Source: Elusimicrobiota bacterium (GTDB taxonomy: Bacteria; Elusimicrobiota; Elusimicrobia; UBA1565; UBA9628). From it: 64,000 nucleotides of DNA. Position 1 is the stretch's first letter. Each line of letters starts with the position of its first letter. The DNA lies in assembly GCA_016207665.1 (NCBI GenBank), contig JACQPG010000055.1, positions 35,184 through 99,183 on the forward strand. The letters run 5' to 3'. Positions 5,959 through 59,371 of this stretch are shown here, in pieces. The position numbers and the translations under genes were made by a program. The notes beneath the pieces were generated by a model. The model saw nothing but the letters and a program-made list of their open reading frames with translations, did no database searches and was not told where the DNA came from.

Positions 5959-6876
5959 CTAGAATCGAGCTCCGAGCGTCACCCTGTGGGTATGACCCAA
6001 GTCGCCGAACGGCACATAGGCGTAGTCGACCGCCAGGCGCTCGATGCGGACCCCGATGCCCGTCCCGAGGCCCGAGGCTCCTCCGAGCTGGTCCTGCGCG
6101 CGCCCCAGCTGGTAGCCCGCCCTGATGGCGAATTGAGGCACGATCCAATATTCGGTGCCCAGGCTGCCGTAGTTGCGCTTGTCGCGCACCCAATGGTCTC
6201 CATCGGCGGCGACGATCAGCTTGTCCCAGAGCCGGTAGGCCACGCCGTATTTCATCAGCAGCGGGAGCGGGTCGGGACCGAGCTTGTTGCCCAGATTCTG
6301 CACCGACAGGCCGGCCGAAAGCTCGTCGTTGATCTTATGCACCGCGCCCAAGTCGACGGCGAAGGCCTCCTCCGAGAAGCTGTCGAGCTTGACGTGAACC
6401 AGCTTCACCGAGCCTCCCAGCGAGAGCTTGTCGATGAAGGCGTCCTTGCGGGCATAGGACAGGGCCACGGCGAAGTTCCGGTTGCTGAAGGTCGAGTCCG
6501 GAGTCTCCGTGTCCCCGGCCCTCTTCTCGATGTCGGACACCTGAAGATAGTTCACTCCGAGGCCGAACACGTCCTTGCTCTCTCCCCTCACGGGACCGGC
6601 GAAGCCGATGAAGCCCTGGCTCTCGTCCTGGAACAGCTGGTTATAGCTGACGCTGACGCTTCTCTTTTCGAGCTGCCCCAGGCCGGCCGGGTTCCAATAG
6701 ATGCTATTGGCATCATCGGATATGGCGGCGGTGGCGCCGGCCATTCCCAGCGCCCTCGCACCGACTCCGACCTTAAGGAACGACGCTCCGGTCGTCCCGA
6801 CCCCGGCCGCCTGAAGACTAGGCACGGCCAGGGCCATCGCGGTCAGGACCGCGGCTGCGACAGATCGAAGGCCCAT
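5959..6876 (-). CDS. PorV/FadL-like outer-membrane beta-barrel protein (T9SS shuttle-like), paralog 1
   Basis: Start taken at internal ATG 6876, which has a perfect SD (AGGGAGGATGTTATG). Signal peptide MGLRSVAAAVLTAMALAVPSLQA. N-terminal signature ASFLKVGVGARALGMAGATAAISDDANSIYWNPAGL. Alternating beta-strand pattern and C-terminal ...THRVTLGARF aromatic end typical of OMPs. Lies 44 nt downstream of the giant CTD protein gene. Confidence 0.75.
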   Translation of the reverse strand: MGLRSVAAAVLTAMALAVPSLQAAGVGTTGASFLKVGVGARALGMAGATAAISDDANSIYWNPAGLGQLEKRSVSVSYNQLFQDESQGFIGFAGPVRGESKDVFGLGVNYLQVSDIEKRAGDTETPDSTFSNRNFAVALSYARKDAFIDKLSLGGSVKLVHVKLDSFSEEAFAVDLGAVHKINDELSAGLSVQNLGNKLGPDPLPLLMKYGVAYRLWDKLIVAADGDHWVRDKRNYGSLGTEYWIVPQFAIRAGYQLGRAQDQLGGASGLGTGIGVRIERLAVDYAYVPFGDLGHTHRVTLGARF

Positions 6877-6920
6877 AACATCCTCCCTTGGCTTTATCGC
6901 GCGTATCCTCGATAGAGTAG

Positions 6921-9900
6921 TCATTTAATCACCGCCATCTTGAAGGTGGCGTCCTTGGCCTTGACCCCGCCCATGGAGATAACGCCGTAATACACACCAT
7001 TAGCCACGTCCTTGCCGTCTCTCTGGCGGCCGTCCCAGGCGGCGTAGTAATAGCTGCCGCCCGATTGCTCGCCCTGGTCCAGCTCCTGGACCAGCTCGCC
7101 CGCCAGGTTATAGATGCGGATGTGGACGCGGCTGGAGCCGACCGATGACGGAACCTCGTACTTGATCACCGTGCCGCGCGTCGTCAGGCTCGTGGTCGCG
7201 CCACCGTGCACCAGGTTTACCGTCTTATCGCTCAAGTTGAACGGATTCGGGAAGTTGAAGACCTTGAATATGCTTCCCGAATAGGCCGCTCCGGTAAGCG
7301 ACGGCTTGAGTATGCCGAAGCTGCCCGATTCCACATGGCCGGCCACGTGCGACAAGGGATTGATCCTATGGCTCCGGCCGTCGAAGAGAGCCCTCATGGG
7401 GCTGCTCTGCACGCCGGACACCGAGGTCAAGCCCAGCACGCGGGCGCAGACCGTGCCCTTGATGGGATCCAGCGTCTGCTGTCCAGGCACAACCTCCCAC
7501 TTCCCGCTGACGCTATTGTAATGATGCACGGCCGCGTCGGTCAGGCTGGTCTGGTTTTTATCATAGGACAGACAGACCTGGAAGCCCTTGGCCGTGAAGT
7601 TGACGCTGGCGATGTCGAGCTGATACACGTCGCTGGCGAAGGCGGCCCGGCCTACGGTCCCCACGATGGAGGCGATGGTCGAGGCGTCGACGTCCACGTT
7701 CGACAAAGAACAGCTCGGTATGGCTCCGCTCGATATCGGCAGCATCGAGCCCGGCGGGATGGTGATGGCCGAGGCGTCGTTGCCGGAATCATCGATCGTC
7801 ACCTTGTTTTGAGCCCTGCCCGCGGCATCGGAGTCCGAATCGCCGAGGAGTTCGTCATCGATGTCCTTCTTGGCGCCGCCGCCATGGGACTTGCTGAACC
7901 TCAGGTCCTGAATCACGGGCCTCGGGCTATTCGGATTGGCGACAATGTGCATGTTGTAGATCACATTATCGGAGAGATCCGCCAGGGGAATGTTCAAGAC
8001 AAGCGAGCCGTCCACCTGCTCCTGCGCATCCATGATAGGGGTGGAAACGGCAACGCTAAACGGCACGGTAGCCTGGTGATACCACGCCTGGCCGTCGTCG
8101 AAGTCCCCGGGATTGGCCACCGTGCATTGGAACTTCGGCGGATTCGGCGCGCAAGTGACCTCGACACGAAGGGGCTTGGAGGCAAGCGTGAAGTCGATTC
8201 CCGCGGCCGGCGCGACCGTGCTCTGGGTAATCACGTATTTGCCTGGATATTTCACCGCGATCCTATAGGTGTTGCCGGGCACGAGATTATCCAGGCGATA
8301 GGCGCCCACCGAGCTGGTCTTCACACGGAACAACGGCAGCTCCGAGGTCGGGTTCTGGCCGTTGAAGGTGTCATCGTAGGCGATGATCTCCGCGTTGGGC
8401 TGGGTCTTGGCGAAGGGCAGCCTCTGCGAATAGACCGTCCCGGAGATCACTCCCGCGGCGGCCGTCAGCGAGAGGTTCTGCGTGAGGGTGCCTGTGCCGA
8501 ACACATCCTTGTTGGCCGCCGAAGGCGCGTAGCCGGAGGCTGAGGCCAATATCTTGAAGTTTCCAGGTGGCAAACCCGCCACCGAGTAGACGCCCGAAGC
8601 ATTGGTGGTCACGATTTTCTTTGGATAGTTCTCGGCCTCGATCGCCACCGAGGCGTTGGCGATGACCACGCTGTTGGTGGTGGTCACGACCCCGGAAAGC
8701 GTCGCTCCCGAGCCCACCAACTGGTCCAGGTTGAAGTTCAAGGTCGTGGTGGAACCATCCACGCTCATGGTGACCTTGGTCTGATAAGGCGGGTAGTTCG
8801 GCGTGGTCAGCACGGCCAGATAGGTCTGGCCCGGTATCAGGCCTCTCAATTGATACCCGAAGGCCAAGCCGCCGAAGGTCTGCTGGAAGAGGTTCCAGTC
8901 GTTGTTGGCCAAGGACTGATTGAGCTGCTCGTCCATGGCCTGCGTGAAATTCTGCGGGTTGGGCGTGACGAAACCCGCGGATTTTAGGCTGCCGCTGGCG
9001 TCGAACACCGAGATCAAGGGGATGAACTTCATGAAGTTATCGAAGTCTCCGCCCAGATTCTGGAAGTCGGCCTGCCGGAATATATTATTCGCGATCACCG
9101 TGCCCTGCAAGGTGACCTGGCCCAGCGCGTTTTGCGCCGGAGAGGGCGTGAGGTTCACGGGCACGGCCTGCACGGGCTGCCCGCCCTCGGCGAACACCGA
9201 GGCGGTAGCGCGCGCGCTGTCGATGATCACGTTCTTGCTCGAAGTGAGTATCGTCAAGAACATGTGGGTCGAATTCGCGTCTCCGGACATGAAATCGCCC
9301 TTGCGCAGCAGATACATGTCATAGATGCCGGGAGAAGGCATGCGCACCGTGCAAAACCCGCCGCTCGGACCGCAGTAGCCCTGACCCGGGGGATAGTAGT
9401 TGATGTAGTTGTCCCAGGCATCCAAAAGCTCGGTCAGCTTCTCTCCCTTGAACAAGGTGCCGGGTGGAACCGTCAGCACGGACCAGGTCTCGACGGGACG
9501 CGGCTCGCGCGAGCTGGTCACGAAACTGATGGGCTGGAGGCTCGCCGTGGCCACCGAAATGGCCATGTAGGTGCCGTCGACCAGCTTGAAGTCGGTGCTG
9601 GTGTCCTGATTGGCCACGATGGTCGCCTTTTGATTGGTGGTCGGATTGGCGTAAGGGAACTTGCCCCAGCCATACACGCGCATGCGATAGGTGCCCGGGA
9701 TCAGCCCGCCCAGGGTGTATTCGCCGGCGTCGGTCACCTGAGTCCAGCCGCCGCCTTCGACGTTGTCGCCGCTGGCGGAAAGCGAGGCGCTGGTGAACTG
9801 ATTGCCCGAGTTCTCGGGCTGCCACACCGTGCCGTCCGGCTTGAGCAATTTGCCGGTCAAACGGCCGGCGGGCACGAAATTCATGTCGAGCCGAGCCACC

Positions 9901-11678
9901 GCGGTGCTGACGAGGTTGATCTCGGTCTCTCCGTGGCTTTCATCGGTGCGCCCCCAGTAACCGGATTCGACGCGCATCCTATAGATGGCGCCGCTGCCCA
10001 CGAAGACCTGATAGTTATAGGAATTCGAGCCGCTGGCACTGATCACGGCGAAATTGCCGGGATTGCAGCGGCCGGTGCTTTGCTGGCACTCTCCGCGCAG
10101 CACGATGGTGATGGGATCATTGCGAAGGTCGGCGTTTTCCGAGAAGCTCAGCGTGCCGTGCAGCCTTCCCGTCTGATTGGACTGGGTATTGACCACGATC
10201 GTGATGGAGGAGACCCCCAAGCCTCCGATATCGACGCCCTGCCCATTGTAGATCCTGATCATCTGCCCGACCGCGACATCGGCGGCGTCGGTGCTGATGG
10301 TCAAGCGCAGATCATCGCTGCCGCAGTGGTCCTGCCCCCATTGCCAATTGCCGTCCGCTCCGGCGTTGAACATGATGCCGCGGTCCGTGAACTGGCTCCA
10401 CATACTGACGGAGAGGTTGCCGCTGGGCAGTCCGTCGACCAGGGCATAGCCCGTGGTGGCCCGCTTGTTCGAATTCGTCATGGCGGGCCGGCTCATCTGT
10501 CCCGGCGGATTGCAGCCGCCGCCGCCGTCAATCTCCCAGCGATCCCAGTCCGGCCAGACGTTCACTCCGGCGCCGGCCACGGGGTTGCCGTTCTGGTCCC
10601 TCACATAGACCGACAACTTGCCGATACTCGGCGGAGTCTTATTGAGCCTGACCTTCTTAATTTGAGGAGTACCTGTATAAAGGAAATCATTGATACCCGG
10701 AGGCGCGCCGAAGCCAGCCTTGGTGCTGAAGTGCCCGTCAAAGCAACCGGTTTGATTGCAATTACCGAATATCGACGCGTAATATGTCGTTCCAGGGACC
10801 AGGTCGAAGAGCTGGAAGCGGCCGTTGTTGTCCGAGTTGGTGAAAATAGTGCATGTCGAAGGACAGAAGCTGTTGACGAATTCGAATTTCACGTGTGACC
10901 AGGGGATGAAGCTCTCCGCCGAGGTGGTGTCGATCACCACTCCGTCGACCGAGACATTAGCCGCCTGGCCCGCGGAGGAGGATCTCGCCTCCTGCTCGAT
11001 CCTTTGAGGGGGCAAACCGCATTGATTGATATCGAGCGCGGCGTTGGTTACCGCGTCCGCCACGACCGCCGTGGCGATGGTCGAGTTGCAGCCCTTTTGC
11101 AGGGTGGGATCGTACACGTCCACCTCATAGGTGTTGGCCCCGGCCACCGGGATATTGGAGACCAGCATGTGACAGGTCCCGCCGCCGTCGGTCAAGCAAA
11201 GCCCGAAATTGACCTCGCGATTGGCGGTGGCGAGCTTATTGCGGATCGAGCCGAACAAGAAAGCGTTGGGGCTGGCGTTGCTCACCTGCGCGCGTATATA
11301 ACCTCCGCTGGTCACGCCCGCGGAGGAGATCACCACGGTGCGGGCGGTCGGGTTGCCCGGGACCTCGATATGCAGATGCTCGGGATCAAAAAACTGATCC
11401 TTCAAGATCGGAAAGAAACCATGCTTCTCGGCGACGACCTCGAAGGGTCCGCTTGCCAACCCGGCGAAAGAAGCCACGCCCGAGGCGTTGGTCAATCCCG
11501 TGCGGCTGTTGGTAGCGTCAGGCCCGCCCTCGCCGAAACGAACCACGTAGACCGTCGCCCCCTGGATCAGGGCTCCGTTCTCGTTGGTCACGGTCACGTC
11601 TATGTTCTGCGCGGAAGCCGCTCGAGCTCCCGCCAGAATCCCCAATCCGATCAAAAGGGAAATGATCCTTCTCGCCAT
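6921..11678 (-). CDS. Giant (~1585 aa) secreted/surface protein with repeated carboxypeptidase-regulatory-like beta-sandwich domains and a type-A T9SS C-terminal sorting domain (Por secretion tail)
   Basis: Start at ATG 11678 with SD GGAGGG 6 nt upstream. Signal peptide MARRIISLLIGLGILAGARAASAQ. Multiple repeats of the NIDVTVT..G..I.GATV / GVYSVAGLPPGNF / GAYRLDNLVPGNTYRI type. Last ~90 aa FPNPFNLSDKTVNLV...VIKYEVP...VHIRIYNLAGELVQEL...YAAWDGRQRDGKDVANGVYYGVI...TFKMAVIK matches the Por_Secre_tail consensus. Confidence 0.85.
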   Translation of the reverse strand: MARRIISLLIGLGILAGARAASAQNIDVTVTNENGALIQGATVYVVRFGEGGPDATNSRTGLTNASGVASFAGLASGPFEVVAEKHGFFPILKDQFFDPEHLHIEVPGNPTARTVVISSAGVTSGGYIRAQVSNASPNAFLFGSIRNKLATANREVNFGLCLTDGGGTCHMLVSNIPVAGANTYEVDVYDPTLQKGCNSTIATAVVADAVTNAALDINQCGLPPQRIEQEARSSSAGQAANVSVDGVVIDTTSAESFIPWSHVKFEFVNSFCPSTCTIFTNSDNNGRFQLFDLVPGTTYYASIFGNCNQTGCFDGHFSTKAGFGAPPGINDFLYTGTPQIKKVRLNKTPPSIGKLSVYVRDQNGNPVAGAGVNVWPDWDRWEIDGGGGCNPPGQMSRPAMTNSNKRATTGYALVDGLPSGNLSVSMWSQFTDRGIMFNAGADGNWQWGQDHCGSDDLRLTISTDAADVAVGQMIRIYNGQGVDIGGLGVSSITIVVNTQSNQTGRLHGTLSFSENADLRNDPITIVLRGECQQSTGRCNPGNFAVISASGSNSYNYQVFVGSGAIYRMRVESGYWGRTDESHGETEINLVSTAVARLDMNFVPAGRLTGKLLKPDGTVWQPENSGNQFTSASLSASGDNVEGGGWTQVTDAGEYTLGGLIPGTYRMRVYGWGKFPYANPTTNQKATIVANQDTSTDFKLVDGTYMAISVATASLQPISFVTSSREPRPVETWSVLTVPPGTLFKGEKLTELLDAWDNYINYYPPGQGYCGPSGGFCTVRMPSPGIYDMYLLRKGDFMSGDANSTHMFLTILTSSKNVIIDSARATASVFAEGGQPVQAVPVNLTPSPAQNALGQVTLQGTVIANNIFRQADFQNLGGDFDNFMKFIPLISVFDASGSLKSAGFVTPNPQNFTQAMDEQLNQSLANNDWNLFQQTFGGLAFGYQLRGLIPGQTYLAVLTTPNYPPYQTKVTMSVDGSTTTLNFNLDQLVGSGATLSGVVTTTNSVVIANASVAIEAENYPKKIVTTNASGVYSVAGLPPGNFKILASASGYAPSAANKDVFGTGTLTQNLSLTAAAGVISGTVYSQRLPFAKTQPNAEIIAYDDTFNGQNPTSELPLFRVKTSSVGAYRLDNLVPGNTYRIAVKYPGKYVITQSTVAPAAGIDFTLASKPLRVEVTCAPNPPKFQCTVANPGDFDDGQAWYHQATVPFSVAVSTPIMDAQEQVDGSLVLNIPLADLSDNVIYNMHIVANPNSPRPVIQDLRFSKSHGGGAKKDIDDELLGDSDSDAAGRAQNKVTIDDSGNDASAITIPPGSMLPISSGAIPSCSLSNVDVDASTIASIVGTVGRAAFASDVYQLDIASVNFTAKGFQVCLSYDKNQTSLTDAAVHHYNSVSGKWEVVPGQQTLDPIKGTVCARVLGLTSVSGVQSSPMRALFDGRSHRINPLSHVAGHVESGSFGILKPSLTGAAYSGSIFKVFNFPNPFNLSDKTVNLVHGGATTSLTTRGTVIKYEVPSSVGSSRVHIRIYNLAGELVQELDQGEQSGGSYYYAAWDGRQRDGKDVANGVYYGVISMGGVKAKDATFKMAVIK

Positions 11679-11774: not shown

Positions 11775-11803
11775 AGTATATTCGCCGCTCAACGCCTTGT
11801 CAA
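11775..11803 (-). promoter_or_regulatory. Candidate sigma70-type promoter P2 for the giant CTD protein gene (TTGACA-17-TATACT)
   Basis: On the minus strand: cTTGACAaggcgttgagcggcgaaTATACTcacg. Perfect -35, 17-nt spacer, near-consensus -10. Would give a ~90-nt leader. Confidence 0.45.
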
Positions 11804-12048: not shown

Positions 12049-12070
12049 ACAGAAATAACGAGCCCCCTCT

Positions 12071-12142
12071 TGCGCTCGCCAGGAATCGAACCTGGATACC
12101 GAGCTTCGCAGGCTCGTACACTATCCATTGTGTTACGAGCGC
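12071..12142 (-). tRNA. tRNA-Arg, anticodon GCG (CCA not encoded)
   Basis: Hand-folded cloverleaf: GCGCTCG TA ACAC AATGGATA GTGT A CGAGC CTGCGAA GCTCG GTAT CCAGG TTCGATT CCTGG CGAGCGC A. 7-bp acceptor, GG in D-loop with A20 (Arg identity), U33, A37, TTCGATT T-loop. Confidence 0.75.
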
Positions 12143-12163
12143 AAGAGAGGGCCTGAAACGGGA

Positions 12164-14534: not shown

Positions 14535-17462
14535 ATGAACAGGATCTCCTCGCTGCTGCTTGCCGCCTCTTTATTGTTCTCGTCGATCCAACCCGCTTTC
14601 GCCGCTTCCCGGCAGAGACGCGCGGGCCCGGGCTCGTCCCGCGGACCTGCCGCCGGAGCCAGACGGCCGGCGCGCGTTCAAGGCCCCAGGACCGCCCAGT
14701 CCATCCAGGCTCCTGCCCTGCCGGCTTCCGCCGTGAGCGCCAGCGCCGAAAGACCCGACGATCCCCGACGGCGCCAAGATCCCGGTCCCGACGATGTCGA
14801 TGACGGCGACGGCGGCGGGCGCCGAGACCCGGACATCGACGAGCCCGTCGACCCAGAGCGCGATGATGGATTTCTCCTCAACACATTGGAAAACGTCGAG
14901 ACCTCCTTGGCCAAGCTTGACCGCATATTCGGTGAGAACCGGATCGCGGCTCGCGTCGCCAAGTTGCCCACGATCGATCTCGCTCGCGCGGGCCTGCATG
15001 AGCTGCTGGTCGCCCGGCAGGGAGCCCTTCTGCGCGAGATCGCGCTGGAACGCAGGCTCTCCATACACCATGCCCATGCGATCGAGGACTCGGGCAACGC
15101 TCATACCCATCATCGGAAGGCCCGCGAGACCCAGCAAGACATAACGGCCCTCAAAGCCCACATCTCGAGCATCGAAGCGCGGATCAGGGAGGTCCAAGAG
15201 GCGATACTCCAGCAACAGCCGGCGGATTCGGTCGCCATGCCCCACTCGCTGGAAGACGCCGCCCAGCCGGCTCGGCCTCGCCGATTCAACATCCCCGTCG
15301 AAGACGAGCCGGCGCAGGCGGATTTGACCCCTTGGGAGAAGGCGCTCGCCTTGGGCCGTCGATTGCATCTCAAAGGGTTCAAGATTCCGCCGGTGGAAGC
15401 CGGTCAACCCGTCCGCGTTATCGGATCTTGGACGGAGAAGGAGGTCAATTATAGCGCTGTAGGGATCCAACTGGCTCTCAGCCAGGAAAACGGGCTCGTA
15501 GCCACCCGGAACGGCCAAACCCTCACGCCCGAAGAGCTGATGAGCTGGCTGGAAATCGCGGAGATGGCGGGGCTTAAATCCGCTCCCGCGCCCTTCCAGA
15601 TCCCCGAGAAGGATCGGGCGGCCGCGGAAGCCGGCAAAAAACTGCTCTCGTGGCGCGTTCCGCCCCACATCTTGAACCACTCGCTTCAGGCCGTGATGGG
15701 CGCCAATAAGAGGCGCTTCACGCTTTCGCCCGACGTGGTTTTCTACTTCTTCCGCCAGGGCGTGCCCCTGGCCACGCCCGTCGGACAGATATTGGCTCAA
15801 TTCTTGGCGGCTTTGCGCGAGGAGGGACGCGAAAGAGCCTTGAGCCAGGAGGAGCTTTATTCGTTGGGCGTAGAAATCGAGCAGGAAATCCCCCGCTATA
15901 GGCCCGAGGAAGCCCAAGAAAGCGCCCAGGATCTCTATCGCCGCCTAGCCGACAATACTTTCTACCGGCCTCTGGTGGACTCCCCAGTGGGCATAGACCT
16001 CGGCCGGCCCGGCCTAGATCTGGCCGGCTATCTACGCAAGCAATTCGACGCTCTGCGCGGCAAGCTCAATAACGCCTTGAGCCAGGGCGCGGATTTGGAG
16101 ACCCTGCAAGATCCGGCTCAGGCCCTGCGCTTCGCCTGGACCGCCCTCGCTCCGCTATCCAACGAATTGAGGACCATGCTGCACCGCGATGGATTCTCTT
16201 TCTTAAAGTATGGCTCTGCTCACGAATGGGAGGTCTGGCGCATGCTCCCCCTCGGAGAAGCAGTCTTCTCCCTGGGACTGAACGATATCATCCGCCGCCG
16301 CGCGCAACGGGGCGGCAGGGGCTACGCGGTGCCCGTGATCGCGGACTCGGGCGTCGTCGATACCATACATCCGGACAACTCGAAAAACGTCATCGACCTC
16401 GACCGCGCCGGCCGGGAAATCCCTACCGAGCAACTCCTGGCCAAGGCTCTCGCGGCGCAGGCGGCGAAGAAAAAAGAGGAAGCCAAGAAAGGCGATCTCT
16501 CCCCGGAGGCGGTCGCCCGCCTGGCCGAAGGCACCGAGACCCAGTGGAAAAAGGGCGGGGAAGATATACAGGCCCACGCCCATGCCACCGCCATCGCCAC
16601 GCCTCTAGGTCTGGCGGCGGAGGTCTTGGGCCGGAAGATCCGTTCGGTGGACTTGCCCAACTTCCAGGGCGACTCGGACAAGGTCCCGGAGGGCGATCGG
16701 GAGAACTATTTCTTCGATGAGCTCAAGCGCTCGGTGGAAGCCGCGATACAGCACATTCTCAGCGAGGACGAGCTCTCCATACCGGTGGTGAACTTCAGCT
16801 GGGGCGGCAGTTTCGACAGCCGCATCGGAGAATGGATGAACGAGGTCGCCGCGAAATACGGGGCGATATTCGTCGCGGCTTTCGGCAATTCCGGCCCGGG
16901 ACGCCATCAGGAAACGGTGCCGTCCTACGCGGATGCGGTCGACACCATCGCCGCGACCAACGGGCTCAACGCCGAGGCCAATTTCACCTCGGGCGGCGGT
17001 CTTGGAATACGCACGGCCAGCGGCAAGCGCGCCGAGCGCCCGACCCGAGCCGCCCCTGGCGGTGTTTGGGGAGCCAACAGCTTCCTGCAGCCCGGGGTGC
17101 AGAACGCCGACATGGGAGTGATATTCGCTCCGGAAACCAGCGGGCGCTATATGCATGACCGCGGCACGTCCTTTGCCGCTCCCCTGGACGCCATGGCGTT
17201 GACCTTCATGGCGGATGAGGCGGTGTTCCAGGCCCTTGAGTTCTTCAAAGCCAGCGGCTTGAGCGAGAGGGAGAGCCGGGCGCGGGTCAAGAGCCTGCTC
17301 CCTTCCTTGGCCCGTCAAGTCAGCCTGGCCGCCACCGCGGCGGCCGAGATGATGATCGGAGTGCCGCGCCGTTATCAAGGCAACGGCGCGATCAGGCCTT
17401 CCCGGGCCTTGGAATCGTTGACCCAGCGGGTCCGAGAAATCTTGGAGTCGAGGACATCATGA
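14535..17462 (+). CDS. Secreted 975-aa protein with C-terminal subtilase-like (peptidase S8-like) domain
   Basis: Signal peptide MNRISSLLLAASLLFSSIQPAFA. C-terminal third carries S8-like motifs VIADSGVVDTIHPD (Asp), FVAAFGNSGPG (Asn/oxyanion) and GTSFAAPLDAMAL (Ser); the His-motif region is divergent. N-terminal ~550 aa have no recognisable domain and include a coiled-coil stretch. Confidence 0.65.
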   Translation: MNRISSLLLAASLLFSSIQPAFAASRQRRAGPGSSRGPAAGARRPARVQGPRTAQSIQAPALPASAVSASAERPDDPRRRQDPGPDDVDDGDGGGRRDPDIDEPVDPERDDGFLLNTLENVETSLAKLDRIFGENRIAARVAKLPTIDLARAGLHELLVARQGALLREIALERRLSIHHAHAIEDSGNAHTHHRKARETQQDITALKAHISSIEARIREVQEAILQQQPADSVAMPHSLEDAAQPARPRRFNIPVEDEPAQADLTPWEKALALGRRLHLKGFKIPPVEAGQPVRVIGSWTEKEVNYSAVGIQLALSQENGLVATRNGQTLTPEELMSWLEIAEMAGLKSAPAPFQIPEKDRAAAEAGKKLLSWRVPPHILNHSLQAVMGANKRRFTLSPDVVFYFFRQGVPLATPVGQILAQFLAALREEGRERALSQEELYSLGVEIEQEIPRYRPEEAQESAQDLYRRLADNTFYRPLVDSPVGIDLGRPGLDLAGYLRKQFDALRGKLNNALSQGADLETLQDPAQALRFAWTALAPLSNELRTMLHRDGFSFLKYGSAHEWEVWRMLPLGEAVFSLGLNDIIRRRAQRGGRGYAVPVIADSGVVDTIHPDNSKNVIDLDRAGREIPTEQLLAKALAAQAAKKKEEAKKGDLSPEAVARLAEGTETQWKKGGEDIQAHAHATAIATPLGLAAEVLGRKIRSVDLPNFQGDSDKVPEGDRENYFFDELKRSVEAAIQHILSEDELSIPVVNFSWGGSFDSRIGEWMNEVAAKYGAIFVAAFGNSGPGRHQETVPSYADAVDTIAATNGLNAEANFTSGGGLGIRTASGKRAERPTRAAPGGVWGANSFLQPGVQNADMGVIFAPETSGRYMHDRGTSFAAPLDAMALTFMADEAVFQALEFFKASGLSERESRARVKSLLPSLARQVSLAATAAAEMMIGVPRRYQGNGAIRPSRALESLTQRVREILESRTS

Positions 17463-20104
17463 AACAGTTTCGCCTCTGCCGTATTTTATTTGCGGCCCTC
17501 ATCCTGGGCTCGAGCCTGGCTCCGGCCGGACAAGCCCTGGCCTCCGGCCAGGCGCGGCGCGGCCCGACGCGCATCGCGCGTCTAGGCGGTTTCAGGAATT
17601 GGCTGGCCTCGCCATTGACCCACAAGACGAATGCTCCCGTCGCGACGCGAACAAGTCCCTCACTGGCCCCGATGGCGGCACCCGCGCGAGCATCCGTAAC
17701 CGGACCCGCTCGCGACGCCTCCGCTCTTTCCGATGAGAACGCGCCTTTGCAAGCGGCCGCCACGCCGGACGCTCCCTCAGCCGAAACGGCCGAGCCTTTC
17801 CTCGGCCGCCTGTATCGGCTCGGGGCTTCGCTGTCCCGACTCTGGCGCGTGGACCTTCCCGGAAATCTCAACGAGCTCATGACGCAAGGGGGAAGCGCGC
17901 CGGCCGGCGCCTTCGGATTCCGACCCCAGACCGAGCCGATCGAGATCAACGGGGTGGAACTGCGCCTCGGCCGCATGCCGGCGGCCCCGGATCCGGGGCG
18001 GACAGGGCCGGTGGTGACCCATGATCTAGCTATCCCCGGCTCCAGGACGATCGGGGGCAATCTATCCACGCCGAGAGTGATAGACGCCGATCCGGACGAT
18101 ATGGGATCGGTGGAGCTGGCCATACGGCGGCTCATCGACTCGGACGTGCCGACATTCGGCGTGAGCACCAGCGAATTGGCGCTCGATAACCCGGTCAACA
18201 AAGTCCCCGGCCGCCACGTTCCCGGACTCGCGGATCAGGCCGACGCCATCTATTTAAGATTTTGGCAACACAAGAACGGCATCAGGGTGCAGGACAGCTC
18301 GTTGAGCTTCACCCTCTTCATCGAGGAAAGCAATGGCGCCCGCGCGCTGAAGCTCTACTCCTACCAGGGAAAGACCTTCCCGGACATACAATTGACCGAC
18401 ACGGCTCCCCTTCCCGAGGAGCGGCTCATAGCCGCCGCGCGGGAACATTTGCGCCAAATGGGCGTCCCCGATGACACGCCCCTGGAGCTGCTGCCGCTCG
18501 AAGAGGTCATCCTCTACGTGGAGGATGCCTGGCGCGTTCTCAAGATGTACTCGATCAACGGCTATCCCGTCGTCATCGCCGTCGAGGTCAGCACCGGCAA
18601 GGTATTCTCCTGGGACAACCGCATCGGCGCGGCCGCGCGCATGGAGCTTGCCGCCGGCTGGACCATGGCGGCGCGGCTTGAGGGCAACGACAAGAGAGAC
18701 AAGGACGGGGGACCCCTGCTCAACCAGTTCGCTCTCCCGTTGCTCAAAGTGCGGGTCAAGCTTCCCGACGGACAATTCAAGGACGTCGAGACCGACGCCC
18801 AGGGTCGTTTCACGGTGCCGGAACTGGCCGAAGGCCAGGAAGTCGAGTTCCAAGCCGTGCTCTCGGGCCGATACGTGACGGTCAACAACAAGGCGGGAGA
18901 GCCTATACGCCTTTCGGGCGCGATACGGGGAGGCGAGACCAAGACCCTGGTCTTCAACTCGGAGGGAGCCGATCAAAAGACCGTCGCTCAGGTCAACGCC
19001 TATTACTGGTACAGCTATCTGATCACCTGGTGGAGCCGGGAAGGCGCCGAGGACGCCAAGATCAAGGGCCATGTCCCGGCCAATGTCAATATCCCCAGCT
19101 CCTGCAACGCCTACTATACGCCGGGCAATCCCAGCACTAATTTCTTCCAGGCCAGCAAGGAGTGCGCCAACACCGCCAAGCCGGGCGTCATCCTGCATGA
19201 AGGCGGCCATCACATCATCACCAAGCTGGCCGGGCCCTTCGCCAATCGGGGCTATCACGAGGGCGGGGCCGATTATTTCTCCATGGCCATACTCCGCAGC
19301 CCCATGATCGGCGAGAATTTCCTTCTGGGCCGCAATCCCAGCTGGATACGAGACGGCAGGAACGTCTATCAATACCGTTCCAGCGACGAGGAGCACGATC
19401 AAGGCCAGGCCTTCATGGGCTTTGGCTGGAAGCTCTACGAGAATCTGTTCAAGACCTATGCGGACGAGGATAAAGCCTGGACGATCGCCAACAGCCTGGT
19501 GCTGGCCGTGGTCTACGCCGGAGCCAAGGAGATCCCGGCCATCCTAGCCCAGGTGTTGCTGCGCGACATGGACAAGGAAGGCAAGTTCCGCCATGAAAAT
19601 GAGATTCGCGCCGCGGCCAAGGCTCATGGCATCGACCTGCCCTCGAGCACGACCCGCCTGGAATTGCTGGCCCGCTGGGCCTTCGACCGCTTCCGCCACG
19701 TCCGCATGATCGAGTCCCGGGCCTTGCCCCAAGCCTTGGGCTCCGCGGCCCTGGCCGTCTCCATGAGCGTGCTGCCCCAATCCCAAGGCTTCGCGACGCA
19801 GCCCAAGTTGATCACCCGGCAAGTCGCCTTCGAGGCCGGCGCAAGGACGCGCGAGCAATTGCGCCGCGAGATCGAGAGCGTCTTCGGCTTCATCCATGGA
19901 GAATACCTACTCTACCCCGAGGAATGGAATCGGCTCTATCCGGGCTTCCGCCCCCTCTCCAAGGAGATCCAGGAAGAGGACGGCCGGCTCATCGTGACCA
20001 TCACGGGCCTCAAGCGTTCCGTCGAATACGCGGTCGAGCAGCTGCGGCGGATCAACGTCCGACACCCGCAGGCCGGCGCCCCGCGCGTCATCGCGAGCCT
20101 TTAA
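17459..20104 (+). CDS. Secreted zinc metalloprotease, thermolysin-like (M4-type HExxH...E) with FTP/PepSY-like propeptide region
   Basis: Signal peptide MKQFRLCRILFAALILGSSLAPAGQALA. Zinc site VILHEGGHHIITK (HExxH) with a downstream third-ligand-like HEGGADYFS. PepSY-like segment ...EVILYVEDAWRVLKMYSINGYPVVIAVEVSTGKVFSW. ATGA overlap with the upstream S8-like gene (translational coupling). Confidence 0.7.
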   Translation: MKQFRLCRILFAALILGSSLAPAGQALASGQARRGPTRIARLGGFRNWLASPLTHKTNAPVATRTSPSLAPMAAPARASVTGPARDASALSDENAPLQAAATPDAPSAETAEPFLGRLYRLGASLSRLWRVDLPGNLNELMTQGGSAPAGAFGFRPQTEPIEINGVELRLGRMPAAPDPGRTGPVVTHDLAIPGSRTIGGNLSTPRVIDADPDDMGSVELAIRRLIDSDVPTFGVSTSELALDNPVNKVPGRHVPGLADQADAIYLRFWQHKNGIRVQDSSLSFTLFIEESNGARALKLYSYQGKTFPDIQLTDTAPLPEERLIAAAREHLRQMGVPDDTPLELLPLEEVILYVEDAWRVLKMYSINGYPVVIAVEVSTGKVFSWDNRIGAAARMELAAGWTMAARLEGNDKRDKDGGPLLNQFALPLLKVRVKLPDGQFKDVETDAQGRFTVPELAEGQEVEFQAVLSGRYVTVNNKAGEPIRLSGAIRGGETKTLVFNSEGADQKTVAQVNAYYWYSYLITWWSREGAEDAKIKGHVPANVNIPSSCNAYYTPGNPSTNFFQASKECANTAKPGVILHEGGHHIITKLAGPFANRGYHEGGADYFSMAILRSPMIGENFLLGRNPSWIRDGRNVYQYRSSDEEHDQGQAFMGFGWKLYENLFKTYADEDKAWTIANSLVLAVVYAGAKEIPAILAQVLLRDMDKEGKFRHENEIRAAAKAHGIDLPSSTTRLELLARWAFDRFRHVRMIESRALPQALGSAALAVSMSVLPQSQGFATQPKLITRQVAFEAGARTREQLRREIESVFGFIHGEYLLYPEEWNRLYPGFRPLSKEIQEEDGRLIVTITGLKRSVEYAVEQLRRINVRHPQAGAPRVIASL

Positions 20105-20108
20105 GATA

Positions 20109-20136
20109 TTGACTTCTTTTTGGCGCCTGTTATACT
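20109..20136 (+). promoter_or_regulatory. Candidate sigma70-type promoter (TTGACT-16-TATACT), essentially leaderless, for the 533-aa OMP gene
   Basis: TTGACTtctttttggcgcctgtTATACTgcgggcgctATG. The -10 ends only 9 nt before the ATG at 20146 and there is no SD. Confidence 0.35.
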
Positions 20137-20145
20137 GCGGGCGCT

Positions 20146-21747
20146 ATGAAGAAAACATCCCTGGGAGTCGCGTTTTTATTGACGGCGCAGTCCGCCGGCG
20201 CCATGGAGTGGCAAACTCTGGGCCCGCGGGCCATGGGCATGGGCGGGGCTTATACGGCGATCGCCGAAGGCCCCATCACCCAATATTGGAATCCGGCGGG
20301 ACTGGCTGAGAGCAAGGGGCGCTACGGCTTCGAGATCCCGATCGGCGCCAAGGCCGAGTTCACCGGCGGCGTGCTCAAGAACGCCAACAATCTGGCCGAT
20401 CTGGCCGGCAAATACGATCAGATCACCGCGGCCCAGCAATCGGGCACCGCCGGCGCCGTGGACGCGGACAAGGTCGGCGCTTTCTACAAGGCCTTGGCCA
20501 ATATCTCCGAGATGAACCAGCCCGGCAAGGGTGTGCTCGCCGATATCTCCGGCGGGGGCGGCATAAGGGTGGGACGCTTCGCCTTGTCGGTGCTCAACTA
20601 CACCGAGATCGGCGGCTCGCCTTTCGTCGACACGGTCAACGTCGGACTGACCGGCATTAGCTATGCCGCCGCCAATACCACCCTCTGCGGCGGAGCTGAT
20701 TGCACGATCGCCCCGGCTAATGCCACCAACCAGGCCTCGGCCTCGAGCATAGCCAGCGCGATCGGGGCCTCCGGCTACACGGCCATCAACTCCATCACCG
20801 GCGGGGCTCTGGTCGGCGGAGGCATCGACGACGAGACCGAGCTCGGCAATGCCTTGGTCAACATGGCCACGACCAACGGCATGAGCCCCGAGCAGATAGC
20901 CTCGGCCGCGGCCTCGATCAGCCAGAACGCGGCCGTGGTAAACCCTATACTGCAATCGGCGGCGGCCGGCAACTCCTATCAGAACAACCAGACCAATCTG
21001 ACCTTGCGCGGGGCCTCCTTCACCGAGATGGCCCTGGGCTACGGCCAGGCGCTGCCCTGGGTGCCGGGGCTCAAATTGGGAGGCAATTTCAAGCTGATCT
21101 CGGGCAATATCGGCTATCAGCGCTATCAAGTGCTCGACAAAGCCTCGGGCTCCTCGGGCGGGGACGCGCTCAAGGACTTCAAGGCCAACACCGAGACCAC
21201 GATCAAACCGGCCATAGATCTGGGAGCTCTCTGGCATCTCAAGTCCATGCTGCCCGTCCTGCCTTTCAATCCTCGCGTCGGCCTGGTCGCCCGCAATATC
21301 AACAACCCCAAATTCAAGCAGCCGGCCAGCGCTCGAGCCAACGGCGATACCGCGGATTATCCGCTCAATCCTCAATACCGGGCGGGCGTGGCCCTCAGCC
21401 CCTTCGCCTTCTGGCACGTGGCCATGGACGGCGATCTGAGCAAGAACAACACCGCGGTGCCCGGCTTTCAGTCCCAGAAGGTGGGGTTGGGCACGGAGAT
21501 CAACGTGTTCAACCGCTCCTGGATCAACATCCCTCTGCGCGCGGGCCTTGCCAAGAACATGGCGGACTCGGGCTCGAAGCTGGCCTATTCCGGCGGCTTC
21601 GGCCTAAACTTCCTCCATTTCGTCTTCGACATCGGAGGCTCGATCAGCTCGGACAGGACCGAGGTCAAGACCGGCTCGGGCTCGAGCGGCAGCGAGAAGG
21701 TCCCCTCAAACTTCTCGGTCGCGGCCCAATTGGGCTTCGTCTTCTGA
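20146..21747 (+). CDS. Large (533 aa) PorV/FadL-like outer-membrane beta-barrel protein, paralog 3 (TraF-like family resemblance)
   Basis: Signal peptide MKKTSLGVAFLLTAQSAGA. Same N-terminal signature as the two smaller paralogs (GPRAMGMGGAYTAIAEGPITQYWNPAGL). Gly/Ser/Asn/Ala-rich extracellular-loop-type insertions. C-terminal ...SVAAQLGFVF terminal-aromatic OMP signature. Confidence 0.65.
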   Translation: MKKTSLGVAFLLTAQSAGAMEWQTLGPRAMGMGGAYTAIAEGPITQYWNPAGLAESKGRYGFEIPIGAKAEFTGGVLKNANNLADLAGKYDQITAAQQSGTAGAVDADKVGAFYKALANISEMNQPGKGVLADISGGGGIRVGRFALSVLNYTEIGGSPFVDTVNVGLTGISYAAANTTLCGGADCTIAPANATNQASASSIASAIGASGYTAINSITGGALVGGGIDDETELGNALVNMATTNGMSPEQIASAAASISQNAAVVNPILQSAAAGNSYQNNQTNLTLRGASFTEMALGYGQALPWVPGLKLGGNFKLISGNIGYQRYQVLDKASGSSGGDALKDFKANTETTIKPAIDLGALWHLKSMLPVLPFNPRVGLVARNINNPKFKQPASARANGDTADYPLNPQYRAGVALSPFAFWHVAMDGDLSKNNTAVPGFQSQKVGLGTEINVFNRSWINIPLRAGLAKNMADSGSKLAYSGGFGLNFLHFVFDIGGSISSDRTEVKTGSGSSGSEKVPSNFSVAAQLGFVF

Positions 21748-43012: not shown

Positions 43013-44497
43013 TCAACGGCTGATCTGGAGCGGGGCCAGGTTGATCCGCCGCCCAGTCTTGAGCGTGATCACGCCCGGATTGCCCCGAACGCGAAGCGGC
43101 TGTTGCTCGCCTTCCAAGCCCAGAGCCAGGAAATAATCGCCTTCAGGCAGGTCTCGGAAGATGAAAGCGCCCCGAGATCCGGGCGCGACCGAGTCGACGA
43201 GCTGGCCCGGACCCAGCTGGAAAGCGCCGGCCTTGCTCTCGTAAAGCCCCAAGCGATGCACCGGGATGTTCGAGCTCAAGCGCCCTCGAATAGCGCCAGT
43301 TCTCGGACCAGCCGGCGGCAATCGCAGCAATCCCTTGGGAAAGCCGCGCGTATGGGCCCGCCCCAGCCAAGCCTCGGCATCCTCGGTGTTGCCCAGCTTG
43401 TGATAGATCGCGGCAAGGCGGGCGGCCGCTTGAGACCCGACCCGAAAGCGGCTCTCATCCGACAACAAGGCCAATATCTCCCTGGACCCGGCGGATGCCG
43501 GATCCGCGCTCAGGCTCTCCAGCAGGAGCAGGCGGGCTAAAGGATCCCCCAGCCGCGTTCCCAGCTCGAGCGCCGCTCTCAGCCCCGCCGCGTCCATCGA
43601 CACGGTCAACCCATTGTAGAGATAACGCAGCGCGGCCCAACGGTGAACGCTGGGTCTCTGGGCCAGGCGCCGCGCGGCCTCAAAGCCGCTCTCGGAGAAC
43701 CCCGCCCCTCCCCAGCCCGCGGGCGCTCGATGAAACTCCCAATCGGGACGGCCGGAGCTCTCGGACAATATCAAGACGGCCCTGGCCGGGCTCGGCTCCG
43801 GCTCAAGCCCCAGGGCCTGGGCTAAATCCGCCTTGCCCAGATCGCAAAAGGCCAACCCCCAAGCGTAAATGAACGCGCTCGCGCCGACCAAACATGCCGT
43901 CCCGATTCCGGCGCGCCGCCGGCCCGACGAACGAGCGCCGCCCATGAGCCAGTTGGCCAAACCTAGGGACGTGAAGGCCCATAACCCCCCAAAAACGAAG
44001 GTGGCGGCGAAAACCAGCGCGGGCTCGCGCAGATCCAGGCTGTCGTGGGGAAAATAGGCGTTCTGTAGCAGATCCAGGAAAACCCTTAGGCCCATCCACA
44101 CCAATAGAGCCGCGGCGGCCGCCCCCGCGCCCAATTGAGCCTTGCTGCGCGCCTTGGCTGCCGCCCCTGAAGCCGCCAATTTCCAAATCCGCCATGCCAC
44201 GATCAATAATCCCGCGAGCAGGAGCGACAAAGCCGCCCAGGAAAAAACGGGGCGAGGCAGGAACCCGCCCGCCTTCATCGCCAACTCGAAAAAGCCAAAA
44301 CCCGCGCGTTTGGGAAGCAGCCAGTCGTCGCTGTGGGGGGCGCGCCGCAACATGTACATCCAAGTCAAGGCGCAAGCCCAGAGCCCGGCGCAGATCAAAG
44401 GCGGGGCCCAATCGACACCGGATCGGGATGCGGCTCTCTTGGCGGCCGGCCGAACGCCGCGAGCCGATGTCATGGCTGCATTATAGCTCTTTGACAA
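43013..44497 (-). CDS. Hypothetical polytopic membrane protein with C-terminal beta-sandwich-like region
   Basis: 494 aa, several hydrophobic helices in the N-terminal half, no recognisable catalytic motif. Confidence 0.4.
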   Translation of the reverse strand: MSKSYNAAMTSARGVRPAAKRAASRSGVDWAPPLICAGLWACALTWMYMLRRAPHSDDWLLPKRAGFGFFELAMKAGGFLPRPVFSWAALSLLLAGLLIVAWRIWKLAASGAAAKARSKAQLGAGAAAAALLVWMGLRVFLDLLQNAYFPHDSLDLREPALVFAATFVFGGLWAFTSLGLANWLMGGARSSGRRRAGIGTACLVGASAFIYAWGLAFCDLGKADLAQALGLEPEPSPARAVLILSESSGRPDWEFHRAPAGWGGAGFSESGFEAARRLAQRPSVHRWAALRYLYNGLTVSMDAAGLRAALELGTRLGDPLARLLLLESLSADPASAGSREILALLSDESRFRVGSQAAARLAAIYHKLGNTEDAEAWLGRAHTRGFPKGLLRLPPAGPRTGAIRGRLSSNIPVHRLGLYESKAGAFQLGPGQLVDSVAPGSRGAFIFRDLPEGDYFLALGLEGEQQPLRVRGNPGVITLKTGRRINLAPLQISR

Positions 44498-48735: not shown

Positions 48736-49419
48736 TTAACCAAGACGCTTGCCCGCCTGACGGGCCGGCGCGGGACCCTGCCACTCCACGGCCGCCCCAT
48801 CAGGTCCTTCCTTGAGGATCTTGAAGGTATTGACCAGCTGATTGAAGTGGGGTTCATATTTCTTGAACCCCGCCCGCGTGGCTGGATAGATCAAGACGTA
48901 AAAACCTCGCTTGAGCGCGACGACCACATAAGCATGCTCGCGCAGATTGACCGGCTTGCCCGTCTCGGCGTCTTCGACCACGCCCCAACGGCGATCCGGC
49001 GGAACGGGCGCCGGAGACAGCACGACGAAATGGCGGGCCTTCTTGCCGTGCACTATGATGTCTCGCGGAGGCTGGCTCATCACGCGATTGCCGTAAACCT
49101 CGCGCAATGTCTGCTGTATATAGTCCTCGGCATCATTGTACATCTCGAGCCCGCCGTCGGGCAGGCGGTGAGGGTAGGAATAGGCATGCCAGCGAACGCT
49201 CAAGCTGGGCGCGCCCAGATAGAAATCCGGCTCGAATGGGCCGATGAAGGTAGTATTGGTGAAATGGCCGCCTTCCCCGTCTGTGATCACCGTCCAACCC
49301 CAGGGAACGGCGCACTCGAAATCCGAATGGATTGAGGCGTGCTGGACGTATTTAGGCGGCTTGCACCCTCCTACGCAAAGCAGAAAAGCCGTTGCCGCGG
49401 CGGCGAGAGGCGCGCGCAT
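48736..49419 (-). CDS. Hypothetical lipoprotein
   Basis: Signal peptide plus lipobox MRAPLAAAATAFLLCVGGC; no recognisable domain. Confidence 0.5.
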   Translation of the reverse strand: MRAPLAAAATAFLLCVGGCKPPKYVQHASIHSDFECAVPWGWTVITDGEGGHFTNTTFIGPFEPDFYLGAPSLSVRWHAYSYPHRLPDGGLEMYNDAEDYIQQTLREVYGNRVMSQPPRDIIVHGKKARHFVVLSPAPVPPDRRWGVVEDAETGKPVNLREHAYVVVALKRGFYVLIYPATRAGFKKYEPHFNQLVNTFKILKEGPDGAAVEWQGPAPARQAGKRLG

Positions 49420-49433
49420 GTCGCCTAAATATA

Positions 49434-51332: not shown

Positions 51333-51379
51333 GTCGGCTTTACGGCGCCGGAAACGATTGTAGCATTGAGGCCTTCGCT

Positions 51380-51718
51380 TCAGCGACGAAGTTCTAGGCG
51401 GACTTTCTCGATCCGCCGCTTGAGGGCCTGTGTCTCATCCGAGAGCTCCCCTCGTCCCCTTTCCCAGCGCTCGCGGCCGATCTCATCGGCCCTCTTGACC
51501 CTTTGATCCAGCTCGATGCGCCGCAGCTTGATGTCCTGTATCTCGTTGAGCGCCTTTCGCTCGGCATCCTTTCCCGCGCCGCGGGCCCGCTTTTCCAGCT
51601 CGTCCAGGCTTTGCTCGAGCTCGCTCAACTGTACGCGCAGGCCCTGATCCCAGCCCGCGTCATCCGCCGCTGAAGAGCTCAGGCAGAGAAGGAGTAGCAG
51701 GCAGCCGGGCCGCAGCAT
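51380..51718 (-). CDS. Small secreted coiled-coil protein
   Basis: Signal peptide MLRPGCLLLLLCLSSSAADD followed by a charged heptad-like sequence. Confidence 0.4.
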   Translation of the reverse strand: MLRPGCLLLLLCLSSSAADDAGWDQGLRVQLSELEQSLDELEKRARGAGKDAERKALNEIQDIKLRRIELDQRVKRADEIGRERWERGRGELSDETQALKRRIEKVRLELRR

Positions 51719-51781
51719 GCAGGCATTATAGGCTCGTCGGGATGGGGTCTCAATGACGAAACGGTCAGTCTTGGTTGAAGG

Positions 51782-52585
51782 CTATCGGCCGTGGGACAAC
51801 ATGCAAGAGGGCAGGCTGTTGGTATAATGCGACTCCAAGCCCGAGCAGGCCTGCATCCAGGAGGCCCCCGCGTCCAAAACGGCCTCGTTTCCGTAAGAAG
51901 CGACCTCGCGGCACATGAACGGATTGACGTATCTCCGAAACTCAGGGGACGGCTCCAGGTAACACAGGGCCGAGGTCGCATAGACTCGGTCGCGCATAAA
52001 GCCCATTTTCTGCGAATCAAAGAGCGCCCGGTTATGCTCCTCGGTGCTGAAATTGTCCGCTCCCGCCCCATGCAGCGTCTCGTGGAATATGACGCCTGAA
52101 AGCCAATCCGGGCAGCCTTGGCAGGAGGTTATGTTGAGCAAGGACAGCAAATGTATTTCGCCAACTTCCCGATGCGAGGCGCAAAAAGCGGGGAAATTCC
52201 GGCTTTCCTGGCCGCCTGGCTCCGGGCAGCTCAGATGCATGCGCCACGTCCATATCCGCCTTTCGAGCTGGGCGGCCCAGCCCGGATTATAACGGCTTAG
52301 GCAGCCTCCCTTGTCTTTGGGAACCGAAGGGCTCAGGCGCCGCCAAGCCAGGTCCAAAGCCTCCATCAGCTCTCGCCGCGAAAAACGCTGATCCTGGAAG
52401 CATCGGGGGTCAACCACCCATCCCTTCGGATGCACGTAAGCCCAGGCCAAGGAGCCGAAGGCCCCGGTCTGTATCCAACAGTCGCCGCGGCGCCGCTGGT
52501 TCCAGTCCGAGGGGCAGGTCTTGATCTCGCAAAACGCGGGCCCAGCCCAAAGACCGAAAAGGAGCAACATCAGGATCCGGCTCAT
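51782..52585 (-). CDS. Secreted cysteine-rich protein with an HExxH motif (putative small metalloprotease)
   Basis: Signal peptide MSRILMLLLFGLWAGPAFC, 14 Cys, and VIFHETLHGAG. Confidence 0.4.
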   Translation of the reverse strand: MSRILMLLLFGLWAGPAFCEIKTCPSDWNQRRRGDCWIQTGAFGSLAWAYVHPKGWVVDPRCFQDQRFSRRELMEALDLAWRRLSPSVPKDKGGCLSRYNPGWAAQLERRIWTWRMHLSCPEPGGQESRNFPAFCASHREVGEIHLLSLLNITSCQGCPDWLSGVIFHETLHGAGADNFSTEEHNRALFDSQKMGFMRDRVYATSALCYLEPSPEFRRYVNPFMCREVASYGNEAVLDAGASWMQACSGLESHYTNSLPSCMLSHGR

Positions 52586-53262: not shown

Positions 53263-53276
53263 GATATCCCCCTGAA

Positions 53277-57586: not shown

Positions 57587-57658
57587 AGCCCACGGCCAGG
57601 ATTGAACTGGCGACCTACCGCTTACAAGGCGGTTGCTCTACCACTGAGCTACGTGGGC
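57587..57658 (-). tRNA. tRNA-Thr, anticodon TGT
   Basis: GCCCACG TA GCTC AGTGGTA GAGC A ACCGC CTTGTAA GCGGT AGGTC GCCAG TTCAATC CTGGC CGTGGGC T. Textbook cloverleaf; CCA not encoded. Confidence 0.85.
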
Positions 57659-59365: not shown

Positions 59366-59371
59366 CGCTGT

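Follow-up and report, generated by a model that had tools for sequence, protein, structure and literature searches.

Recognition of C-terminal domains (CTDs) by PorV-family outer-membrane barrels is currently treated as part of the T9SS (type IX secretion system) of the Bacteroidota and the Fibrobacterota–Chlorobiota–Bacteroidota (FCB) group. In the Bacteroidota, type A cargo as a whole shares a single PorV, whose gene is not next to the cargo genes; genes for type B cargo adjoin genes for cognate PorP/SprF-like shuttles, which anchor the cargo (PMC12618676). Structures of SprA-PorV-substrate complexes reveal that an almost invariant, functionally important lysine near the C-terminus is the only conserved residue of type A CTDs that touches PorV (PMC10994853), and in the attachment complex of Porphyromonas gingivalis, PorU and PorZ are anchored via PorV and PorQ (PMC12365241). 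Here we analyze a 64,000-nucleotide (nt) stretch of DNA from an Elusimicrobiota bacterium (GenBank assembly GCA_016207665.1, contig JACQPG010000055.1, positions 35,184 to 99,183; hereafter the window), in which a gene for a very large secreted protein (the giant) is followed by a gene for an outer-membrane protein (OMP) of the PorV/PorQ family (the barrel). The arrangement has the logic of SprB-SprF and the other type B pairs of Flavobacterium johnsoniae, a large adhesin-like cargo gene beside the gene of a dedicated carrier or anchor, but the partner belongs to the PorV/PorQ family, with no PorP_SprF match and no NCBIfam type B match at this locus. As in PorQ-PorZ and PorV-PorU of P. gingivalis, a CTD-retaining surface protein would be held by a 14-strand barrel of the PorV/PorQ family; unlike in those complexes, the barrel falls a long way short of the equivalog cutoffs for PorQ and PorV, its partner is a 1585-residue array of immunoglobulin (Ig)-like domains rather than a sortase or a carrier of anionic lipopolysaccharide, and the two genes are adjacent, in a phylum outside the FCB group for which no PorKN ring or Sov is known. 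We propose, with a probability of roughly 0.55, that the two proteins form a cognate pair in which the barrel serves as carrier and anchor, binding the CTD of the giant and tethering the giant at the outer-membrane surface.

Both genes lie on the minus strand. The giant gene (6921-11678) encodes 1585 amino acids (aa) from the ATG of MARRIISLL, within a maximal open reading frame (ORF) that extends to 11738, and the barrel gene (5959-6876) encodes 305 aa from MGLRSV, comprising a signal peptide, a plug segment and the barrel proper. Between the TGA stop codon of the giant (6921-6923) and the ATG of the barrel (6876-6874) lies a spacer of 44 nt (6877-6920, minus strand), which carries the Shine-Dalgarno (SD) sequence GGAGG at 6882-6886, 5 nt ahead of the barrel ATG, and in which a terminator scan found no terminator-like site. 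Upstream of the start codon of the giant, by about 100 nt, a consensus scan located a sigma-70-like promoter of the form TTGACA-17-TATACT (11775-11803, minus strand; 11 of 12 matches, graded strong), a pattern match of presumed function. The two genes are best explained as a single predicted operon, given the 44-nt gap, the SD sequence, the lack of a terminator and the promoter-like site. The GC content at third codon positions of both genes (0.81-0.82) is comparable with that of the remaining genes in the window. Reading of the sequence bore out the two ORFs, the gap and the SD sequence as given in the initial annotation, and the strings that it quoted (FPNPFN, IYNLAGELVQEL, WDGRQRDGKDVANGVYYGVI, KMAVIK, ASFLKVGVGARALGMAGAT and SIYWNPAGL) all occur in the translations. 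Each protein is 100% identical to an NCBI entry of equal length from a metagenome-assembled genome (MAG), the barrel to 'PorV/PorQ family protein [Elusimicrobia bacterium]' and the giant to 'carboxypeptidase regulatory-like domain-containing protein [Elusimicrobia bacterium]'; the family name of the barrel is therefore already known from NCBI annotation.

An in-frame ATG further upstream, at 6924, would yield a barrel protein of 321 aa and an ATGA overlap with the stop codon of the giant. We rejected it as the start because it has no SD sequence, the NCBI protein has 305 aa and homologues align from MGLRSV; in an exact look-up the 321-aa version was unmatched and the 305-aa version was found only on two short Logan contigs (2.4 and 1.3 kb). 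Long antisense ORFs of 309-588 aa run across both genes on the plus strand (5986-6915, 7206-8543 and 9132-10898) and are an artefact of high GC content.

The OMP begins MGLRSVAAAVLTAMALAVPSLQA and is a member of the PorV/PorQ family, neither PorP-like nor a plain FadL protein, in agreement with the initial annotation, which had called it PorV-like and not PorP-like. We base this assignment on several results. The protein matched the NCBIfam model of the PorV/PorQ family (NF033709) across its whole profile (positions 1-326 of 326), scoring 176.2 bits where the cutoff is 90; it passed the Pfam PorV model (PF19572) at 39.5 bits against a gathering threshold (GA) of 27; a Foldseek search of the Protein Data Bank (PDB) placed two F. 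johnsoniae PorV chains, 8gl6_F and 6h3i_F, on top (E ~1e-13, TM 0.70-0.71); and a profile of the barrel family, run against PDB sequences, matched F. johnsoniae PorV at E 8.7e-27 compared with 0.008 for TodX. The PorV of the F. johnsoniae SprA-PorV-CTD complexes (6h3i, 8gl6) is thus the best match of the barrel in both sequence and structure. At the equivalog level all scores stayed under the cutoffs: PorQ (NF033711) reached 101.8 of 220 bits, which at 102 bits makes it the best NCBIfam match of this rank, PorV2 (NF052325) 86.4 of 325 and PorV (NF033710) 83.2 of 250. The FadL/Toluene_X model (PF03349) remained below its GA (27.6 against 29.7 bits), with a match limited to residues 54-94, and no PorP_SprF match was obtained with Pfam or NCBIfam. 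An AlphaFold (AF2) model computed from 29 homologues (pLDDT 88.2, pTM 0.83) has 14 strands between residues 73 and 304, the number anticipated for a FadL/PorV barrel, and an N-terminal plug segment of short helices (residues 32-68). The 14-stranded barrel and N-terminal plug are common to FadL, TodX and TbuX, which together with CymD make up the second tier of Foldseek matches (E ~1e-9), but the sequence similarity to these channels is marginal, and the barrel is paired in the genome with a gene for a CTD protein rather than with a catabolic operon.

The gene order extends well beyond this genome. A scan of one genome per species returned 538 relatives of the barrel, and we read synteny on the best 79 loci, nearly all of which come from Elusimicrobiota (of the classes Elusimicrobia and Endomicrobia), the rest being one 'Aerophobetes', one 'Ignavibacteria' and some further MAGs. 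Upstream DNA of 600 nt or more was available for 77 of these loci, and in 72 of them the barrel gene is directly preceded on its own strand by a homologue that spans the full length of the giant; these giants are 23-43% identical to the window giant over ~1600 aa and carry the same CTD at 65-170 bits. Of the five loci that break the rule, three retain a giant or a weaker CTD close by. Two types of cassette can be told apart, one with giants of ~1.6-1.7k aa and barrels 45-57% identical to the window barrel, the other with giants of ~3k aa and barrels 36-39% identical to it. Both types occur on single contigs (L017/L077 and L019/L070), each barrel paralog beside its own giant paralog; unlike the shared PorV of the Bacteroidota, the barrel is cargo-adjacent and paralog-specific. 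Pairwise identities of barrels and of CTDs are correlated (Spearman 0.80), and average-linkage clusters are congruent in 58 of 59 cases. We conclude that the giant-barrel pair has been inherited and duplicated as a unit, because of the contigs with two cassettes, this correlation and the congruent clusters. The initial annotation had described the barrel as the cargo's own partner, at a single locus; the giant-then-barrel order and the co-diversification of paralogous cassettes support that reading, and the finding is more general than was first described, with a cassette conserved phylum-wide.

Some loci depart from this pattern. In one (L057:10001-21005) the order is reversed, a PorV-like gene being followed after 17 nt by an ORF of >3328 aa, cut off by the end of the locus, in which BLAST shows no similarity to the window giant. 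The cassette also occurs on MAG contigs assigned outside the Elusimicrobiota, with a full giant of 1680 aa in L079 (Ignavibacteria) and a weaker CTD in L066 (Aerophobetes), which could reflect mis-binning or horizontal transfer. Two further clusters of putative giants (21 and 22) were discarded as spurious, consisting of antisense ORFs of high-GC giant genes.

The C-terminal domain of the giant comprises ~95 aa (residues ~1490-1585; 6924-7211, minus strand), delimited from Pfam and NCBIfam matches, alignment and the AF2 model, and is predicted to form a beta-sandwich of the FlgD_ig/T9SS-CTD kind. FlgD_ig (PF13860) is the sole Pfam model that it passed, at 41.3 bits in isolation and 37.7 in the full protein against a GA of 27. 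The type-B-related CHU_C model (PF13585) came just under its GA of 27, at 26.9 bits, a likeness to type B cargo, and no NCBIfam type B model (TIGR04131) was among the matches of the CTDs. Both type A models were missed, Por_Secre_tail (PF18962) with 13.7 bits against a GA of 27 and TIGR04183 with 14.1 against a cutoff of 23. The initial annotation had labeled the domain type A and had itself named a sub-threshold score with CTD models as grounds for giving that up, and on these formal terms the label is not supported as given. The tail also matched the PorZ and PorU models in their C-terminal CTD parts. We assembled 34 orthologous or paralogous tails and counted matches at E<=0.1: FlgD_ig, CHU_C and the CTD portions of PorZ and PorU were each matched by 34/34, TIGR04183 by 25/34 (best E 3.5e-7) and PF18962 by 7/34. 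In the alignment of these tails, residues P, Y, V, Y, W, G, A, G, Y and K are invariant, and fold-specifying motifs are present (PNPF upstream, then IYNxAGExV and WDGxNxxGxxxAxGVY). Lysine 1580 (Lys1580, in KMAVIK), six residues from the end of the protein, occurs in 34/34, and the terminal Lys1585 is kept in at least 90%. Lys1580 corresponds to the lysine of type A CTDs that contacts PorV, and IYNxxGxxV, WDGxxxxGxxxxxGVY and the C-terminal lysine are features common to type A CTDs and the CTD of the giant. At moderate confidence (pLDDT ~64-79), the AF2 model places 7-8 strands in the final 100 residues, the comparison with the seven-stranded Ig-like beta-sandwich of type A CTDs being by strand count. 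Taken together, the tail appears to belong to the CTD/FlgD-Ig fold group, as an intermediate type for which the type A label is not established.

The only PDB sequence match of the giant is FlgD (7eh9, E 0.0076). We read the relation to the Ig-like domain of the FlgD hook cap (PF13860) as kinship of fold, not of function: in contrast to FlgD, the domain stands at the extreme C-terminus of a 1585-aa protein predicted to be exported by Sec, beside an OMP gene and with no flagellar context. In the literature we found nothing relevant on FlgD-type CTDs as secretion signals. The domain ends other proteins in the relatives as well, namely BNR/Sortilin propellers (L046:11164-13773, L050:11152-13638 and L079:2-1906) and an 823-aa CarboxypepD_reg protein (L016:15275-17743), a distribution that marks it as a modular tag in Elusimicrobiota.

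The body of the giant is of a different kind. Its N-terminus, MARRIISLLIGLGILAGARAASA, has a basic start, a hydrophobic core and A-S-A, and was read by eye from the translation as a predicted Sec signal peptide (11610-11678, minus strand) with putative cleavage before QN. The repeated carboxypeptidase-regulatory-like modules that had been noticed from the sequence were recovered by Pfam as CarboxypepD_reg in four stretches (110.9 bits), the top-scoring of which spans residues 993-1071 (8466-8702, minus strand; PF13620, profile positions 1-81 of 82), together with an SdrD_B-like region (32 bits). An AF2 model of residues 386-1585 (mean pLDDT 69) is an all-beta string of sandwich domains, and its Foldseek neighbours are Ig-domain arrays: the Bacillus anthracis TIE protein, Gram-positive pilins, alpha2-macroglobulins, SdrD and the archaeal S-layer protein SlaB. 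No enzyme or catalytic fold appeared among the PDB matches of this model. Several cysteines are invariant among giant homologues. The Ig-like arrays and conserved cysteines are consistent with an extracytoplasmic structural protein, and we consider a structural surface-coat or adhesin protein the most likely identity of the giant.

In the mechanism that we favor, the giant would be exported to the periplasm via Sec as a rigid chain of Ig-like beta-sandwich domains without a recognisable enzyme domain, its last ~95 residues would fold as a sandwich of the T9SS-CTD/FlgD-Ig type, and the extracellular loops of the barrel would bind this domain with the invariant Lys1580 as a contact, so that the giant would stay tethered to the external side of the outer membrane. 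The analysis shows the gene pair, its families, the fold of the barrel and the phylum-wide synteny and co-duplication, whereas we infer that the two proteins bind each other, that the giant is located at the surface and that the barrel tethers it. Several points weigh against this reading. An anchor does not explain how the giant crosses the outer membrane; passage of a 1585-aa chain could use an unrecognised translocon or a divergent SprA encoded elsewhere in the genome. The barrel is ~100 residues shorter than F. johnsoniae PorV (305 aa compared with 402); the barrel-family profile leaves a stretch of about 85 residues of PorV (240-323) unaligned, and the long loops with which PorV grips the CTD may be missing. 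With the CTD under the cutoffs of TIGR04183 and PF18962, the case for its recognition by the barrel is built on likeness at the family level and a single conserved lysine. Because of common descent, synteny and co-diversification are confounded; they show linkage rather than binding, and would also suit other functional couplings. Finally, in L046 and L050 the BNR/Sortilin CTD proteins are encoded immediately downstream of the barrel gene, so that the giant may not be the only partner of the barrel.

The remaining genes of the window give the pair a housekeeping setting. Downstream lie gatB, a NUDIX gene, gatA, a gene for a tetratricopeptide repeat (TPR) protein and uvrD; upstream are a tRNA-Arg (GCG; 12070-12143, minus strand), which sits between the gene of a RumA-like methyltransferase and the promoter region of the giant, that methyltransferase gene itself, and ychF. 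A second PorV/PorQ-family OMP gene is found at 58440-59495 (minus strand; NF033709 191 bits, Pfam PorV 50 bits), near a tRNA-Thr (TGT; 57587-57658, minus strand). Its product is 35% identical to the first barrel and has no CTD gene beside it. The start codon and signal peptide of this paralog are ambiguous in the maximal ORF, and in the fetched loci the gene most closely related to it (L014:1-1398, minus strand; 48% identity) is preceded by a CTD-like fragment just upstream. A third barrel of FadL/PorV-like type, which like the second the initial annotation did not mention, is encoded in a three-gene run at 14535-21747 (plus strand): this 533-aa TraF_2 protein (20146-21747), whose N-terminus (residues 26-63) matches the N-terminal motif of PorV_fam, is preceded by a 975-aa protein with an S8-peptidase-like domain and an 881-aa protein without a family, both with a signal peptide. 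The run may represent a second cassette of large exoprotein and FadL/PorV-like barrel, and it differs in its tails, the CTD profile having found no second copy in the window and no CTD on the S8-like or 881-aa protein. Farther along, ORFs of 112-632 aa without a Pfam family (43013-44497 and 48736-52585, minus strand) adjoin a gene for an MlaC-domain protein (52591-53511), and this run has no similarity to anything in the fetched loci.

Models for porK/L/M/N, sprA/sov, porU and porP found no match among the ~48 ORFs of the window, and in an NCBIfam scan of eight large non-giant ORFs that flank related cassettes, taken as SprA/PorU candidates, no T9SS model matched. The earlier statement that no other T9SS core gene lies within 64 kb accordingly stands for porKLMN, sprA/sov and porU and has to be qualified for PorV, given the second PorV/PorQ paralog. 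T9SS genes are stated to be absent outside the FCB phyla (PMC11285876), and the source organism belongs to the Elusimicrobiota, a distant phylum as the initial annotation had surmised and one outside that group; in the literature searched we found nothing that links Elusimicrobia to PorV, the T9SS or its components. We tentatively entertain the idea that Elusimicrobiota lack a T9SS translocon and motor altogether and that the CTD and barrel form a free-standing module for surface display, either alone or with additional proteins. Candidates for such accessory parts are a secreted FecR-domain protein of ~543 aa and an OMP-like protein of ~420 aa, which are linked on the same strand in about half of the loci (L017:12218-13846, L032:10824-12083 and ~40 others) and have no homologue in the window. 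The 420-aa protein has no Pfam, NCBIfam or PDB match, and we rejected it as another PorV/FadL barrel (hhalign probability 1.8%, with no Pfam or PDB sequence match). If the module is free-standing, the CTD/PorV recognition pair would be older than, and separable from, the T9SS of the Bacteroidota.

Alternatively, the giant could be ordinary cargo of a complete, possibly divergent T9SS encoded elsewhere, with SprA/Sov, PorKLMN and PorU/Z, and the adjacent barrel a specialised PorV/PorQ paralog that shuttles the giant from the translocon. The modular use of the CTD, on propellers and on a shorter CarboxypepD_reg protein in relatives, would suit such a system, as would the several PorV/PorQ paralogs per genome, of which the window has two, and the 25 of 34 CTDs that match TIGR04183; moreover, our view of the genome is the 64 kb of the window. 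Set against this are the lack of any core-model match in the window or in the flanking ORFs of relatives, the stated confinement of the T9SS to the FCB phyla and the silence of the literature that we searched, and we regard this explanation as rather unlikely.

A further possibility is that the two proteins suffice for export, the barrel recognising the CTD in the periplasm, opening its plug or a lateral gate, threading the unfolded giant out and then retaining it. Barrels of the FadL family have a plug and a lateral opening, and other small barrels, such as the 14-stranded Slam of the type XI secretion system (T11SS), export surface proteins. The strict conservation of the two-gene unit, its duplication as a unit and the lack of a consistently linked large translocon gene in the window point in the same direction. 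Known PorV, however, is a carrier and not a pore, and the CTD sits within the 36-strand barrel of SprA (PMC10994853); a plugged 14-strand barrel is narrow and has no apparent source of energy, and the linked 420-aa OMP-like and FecR-domain genes hint at further parts, so that self-sufficient export strikes us as unlikely. Least plausible of all, and to our minds very improbable, is that the barrel acts as a generic porin or as a channel of the FadL type through which hydrophobic small molecules pass, and that its co-transcription with the giant has nothing to do with CTD binding, as in a general envelope operon: the near-threshold Toluene_X score and the next-best structural matches to FadL, TodX and TbuX speak for it, but similarity to PorV is far above that to FadL/TodX (E 8.7e-27 against 0.008), the adjacency holds in 72 of 77 loci over deep divergence and survives duplication, and the partner bears the type of domain that PorV-family barrels bind.

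We thus return to the cognate carrier and anchor pair as the reading that we prefer. To our knowledge, dedicated adjacent carriers are known only for type B cargo with PorP/SprF proteins. The Elusimicrobiota pair differs from this accepted picture in two respects, in that a barrel of the PorV/PorQ family is firmly tied to a single giant CTD protein, and in that conservation and co-duplication of the pair extend across a phylum outside the FCB group; we did not find this combination of a PorV/PorQ carrier, an intermediate CTD of the FlgD_ig type and adjacency to the cargo described in the literature searched. If these genomes encode a T9SS of a cryptic kind, one more phylum would be added to the system's known range. 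If they are without SprA and PorKLMN, the pair of CTD and carrier would be a module in its own right, possibly an ancestral one, and how T9SS cargo handling arose would become directly testable. For the organisms themselves, conservation of the giant at full length across the phylum makes it a candidate for a major surface-layer protein of a poorly studied lineage.

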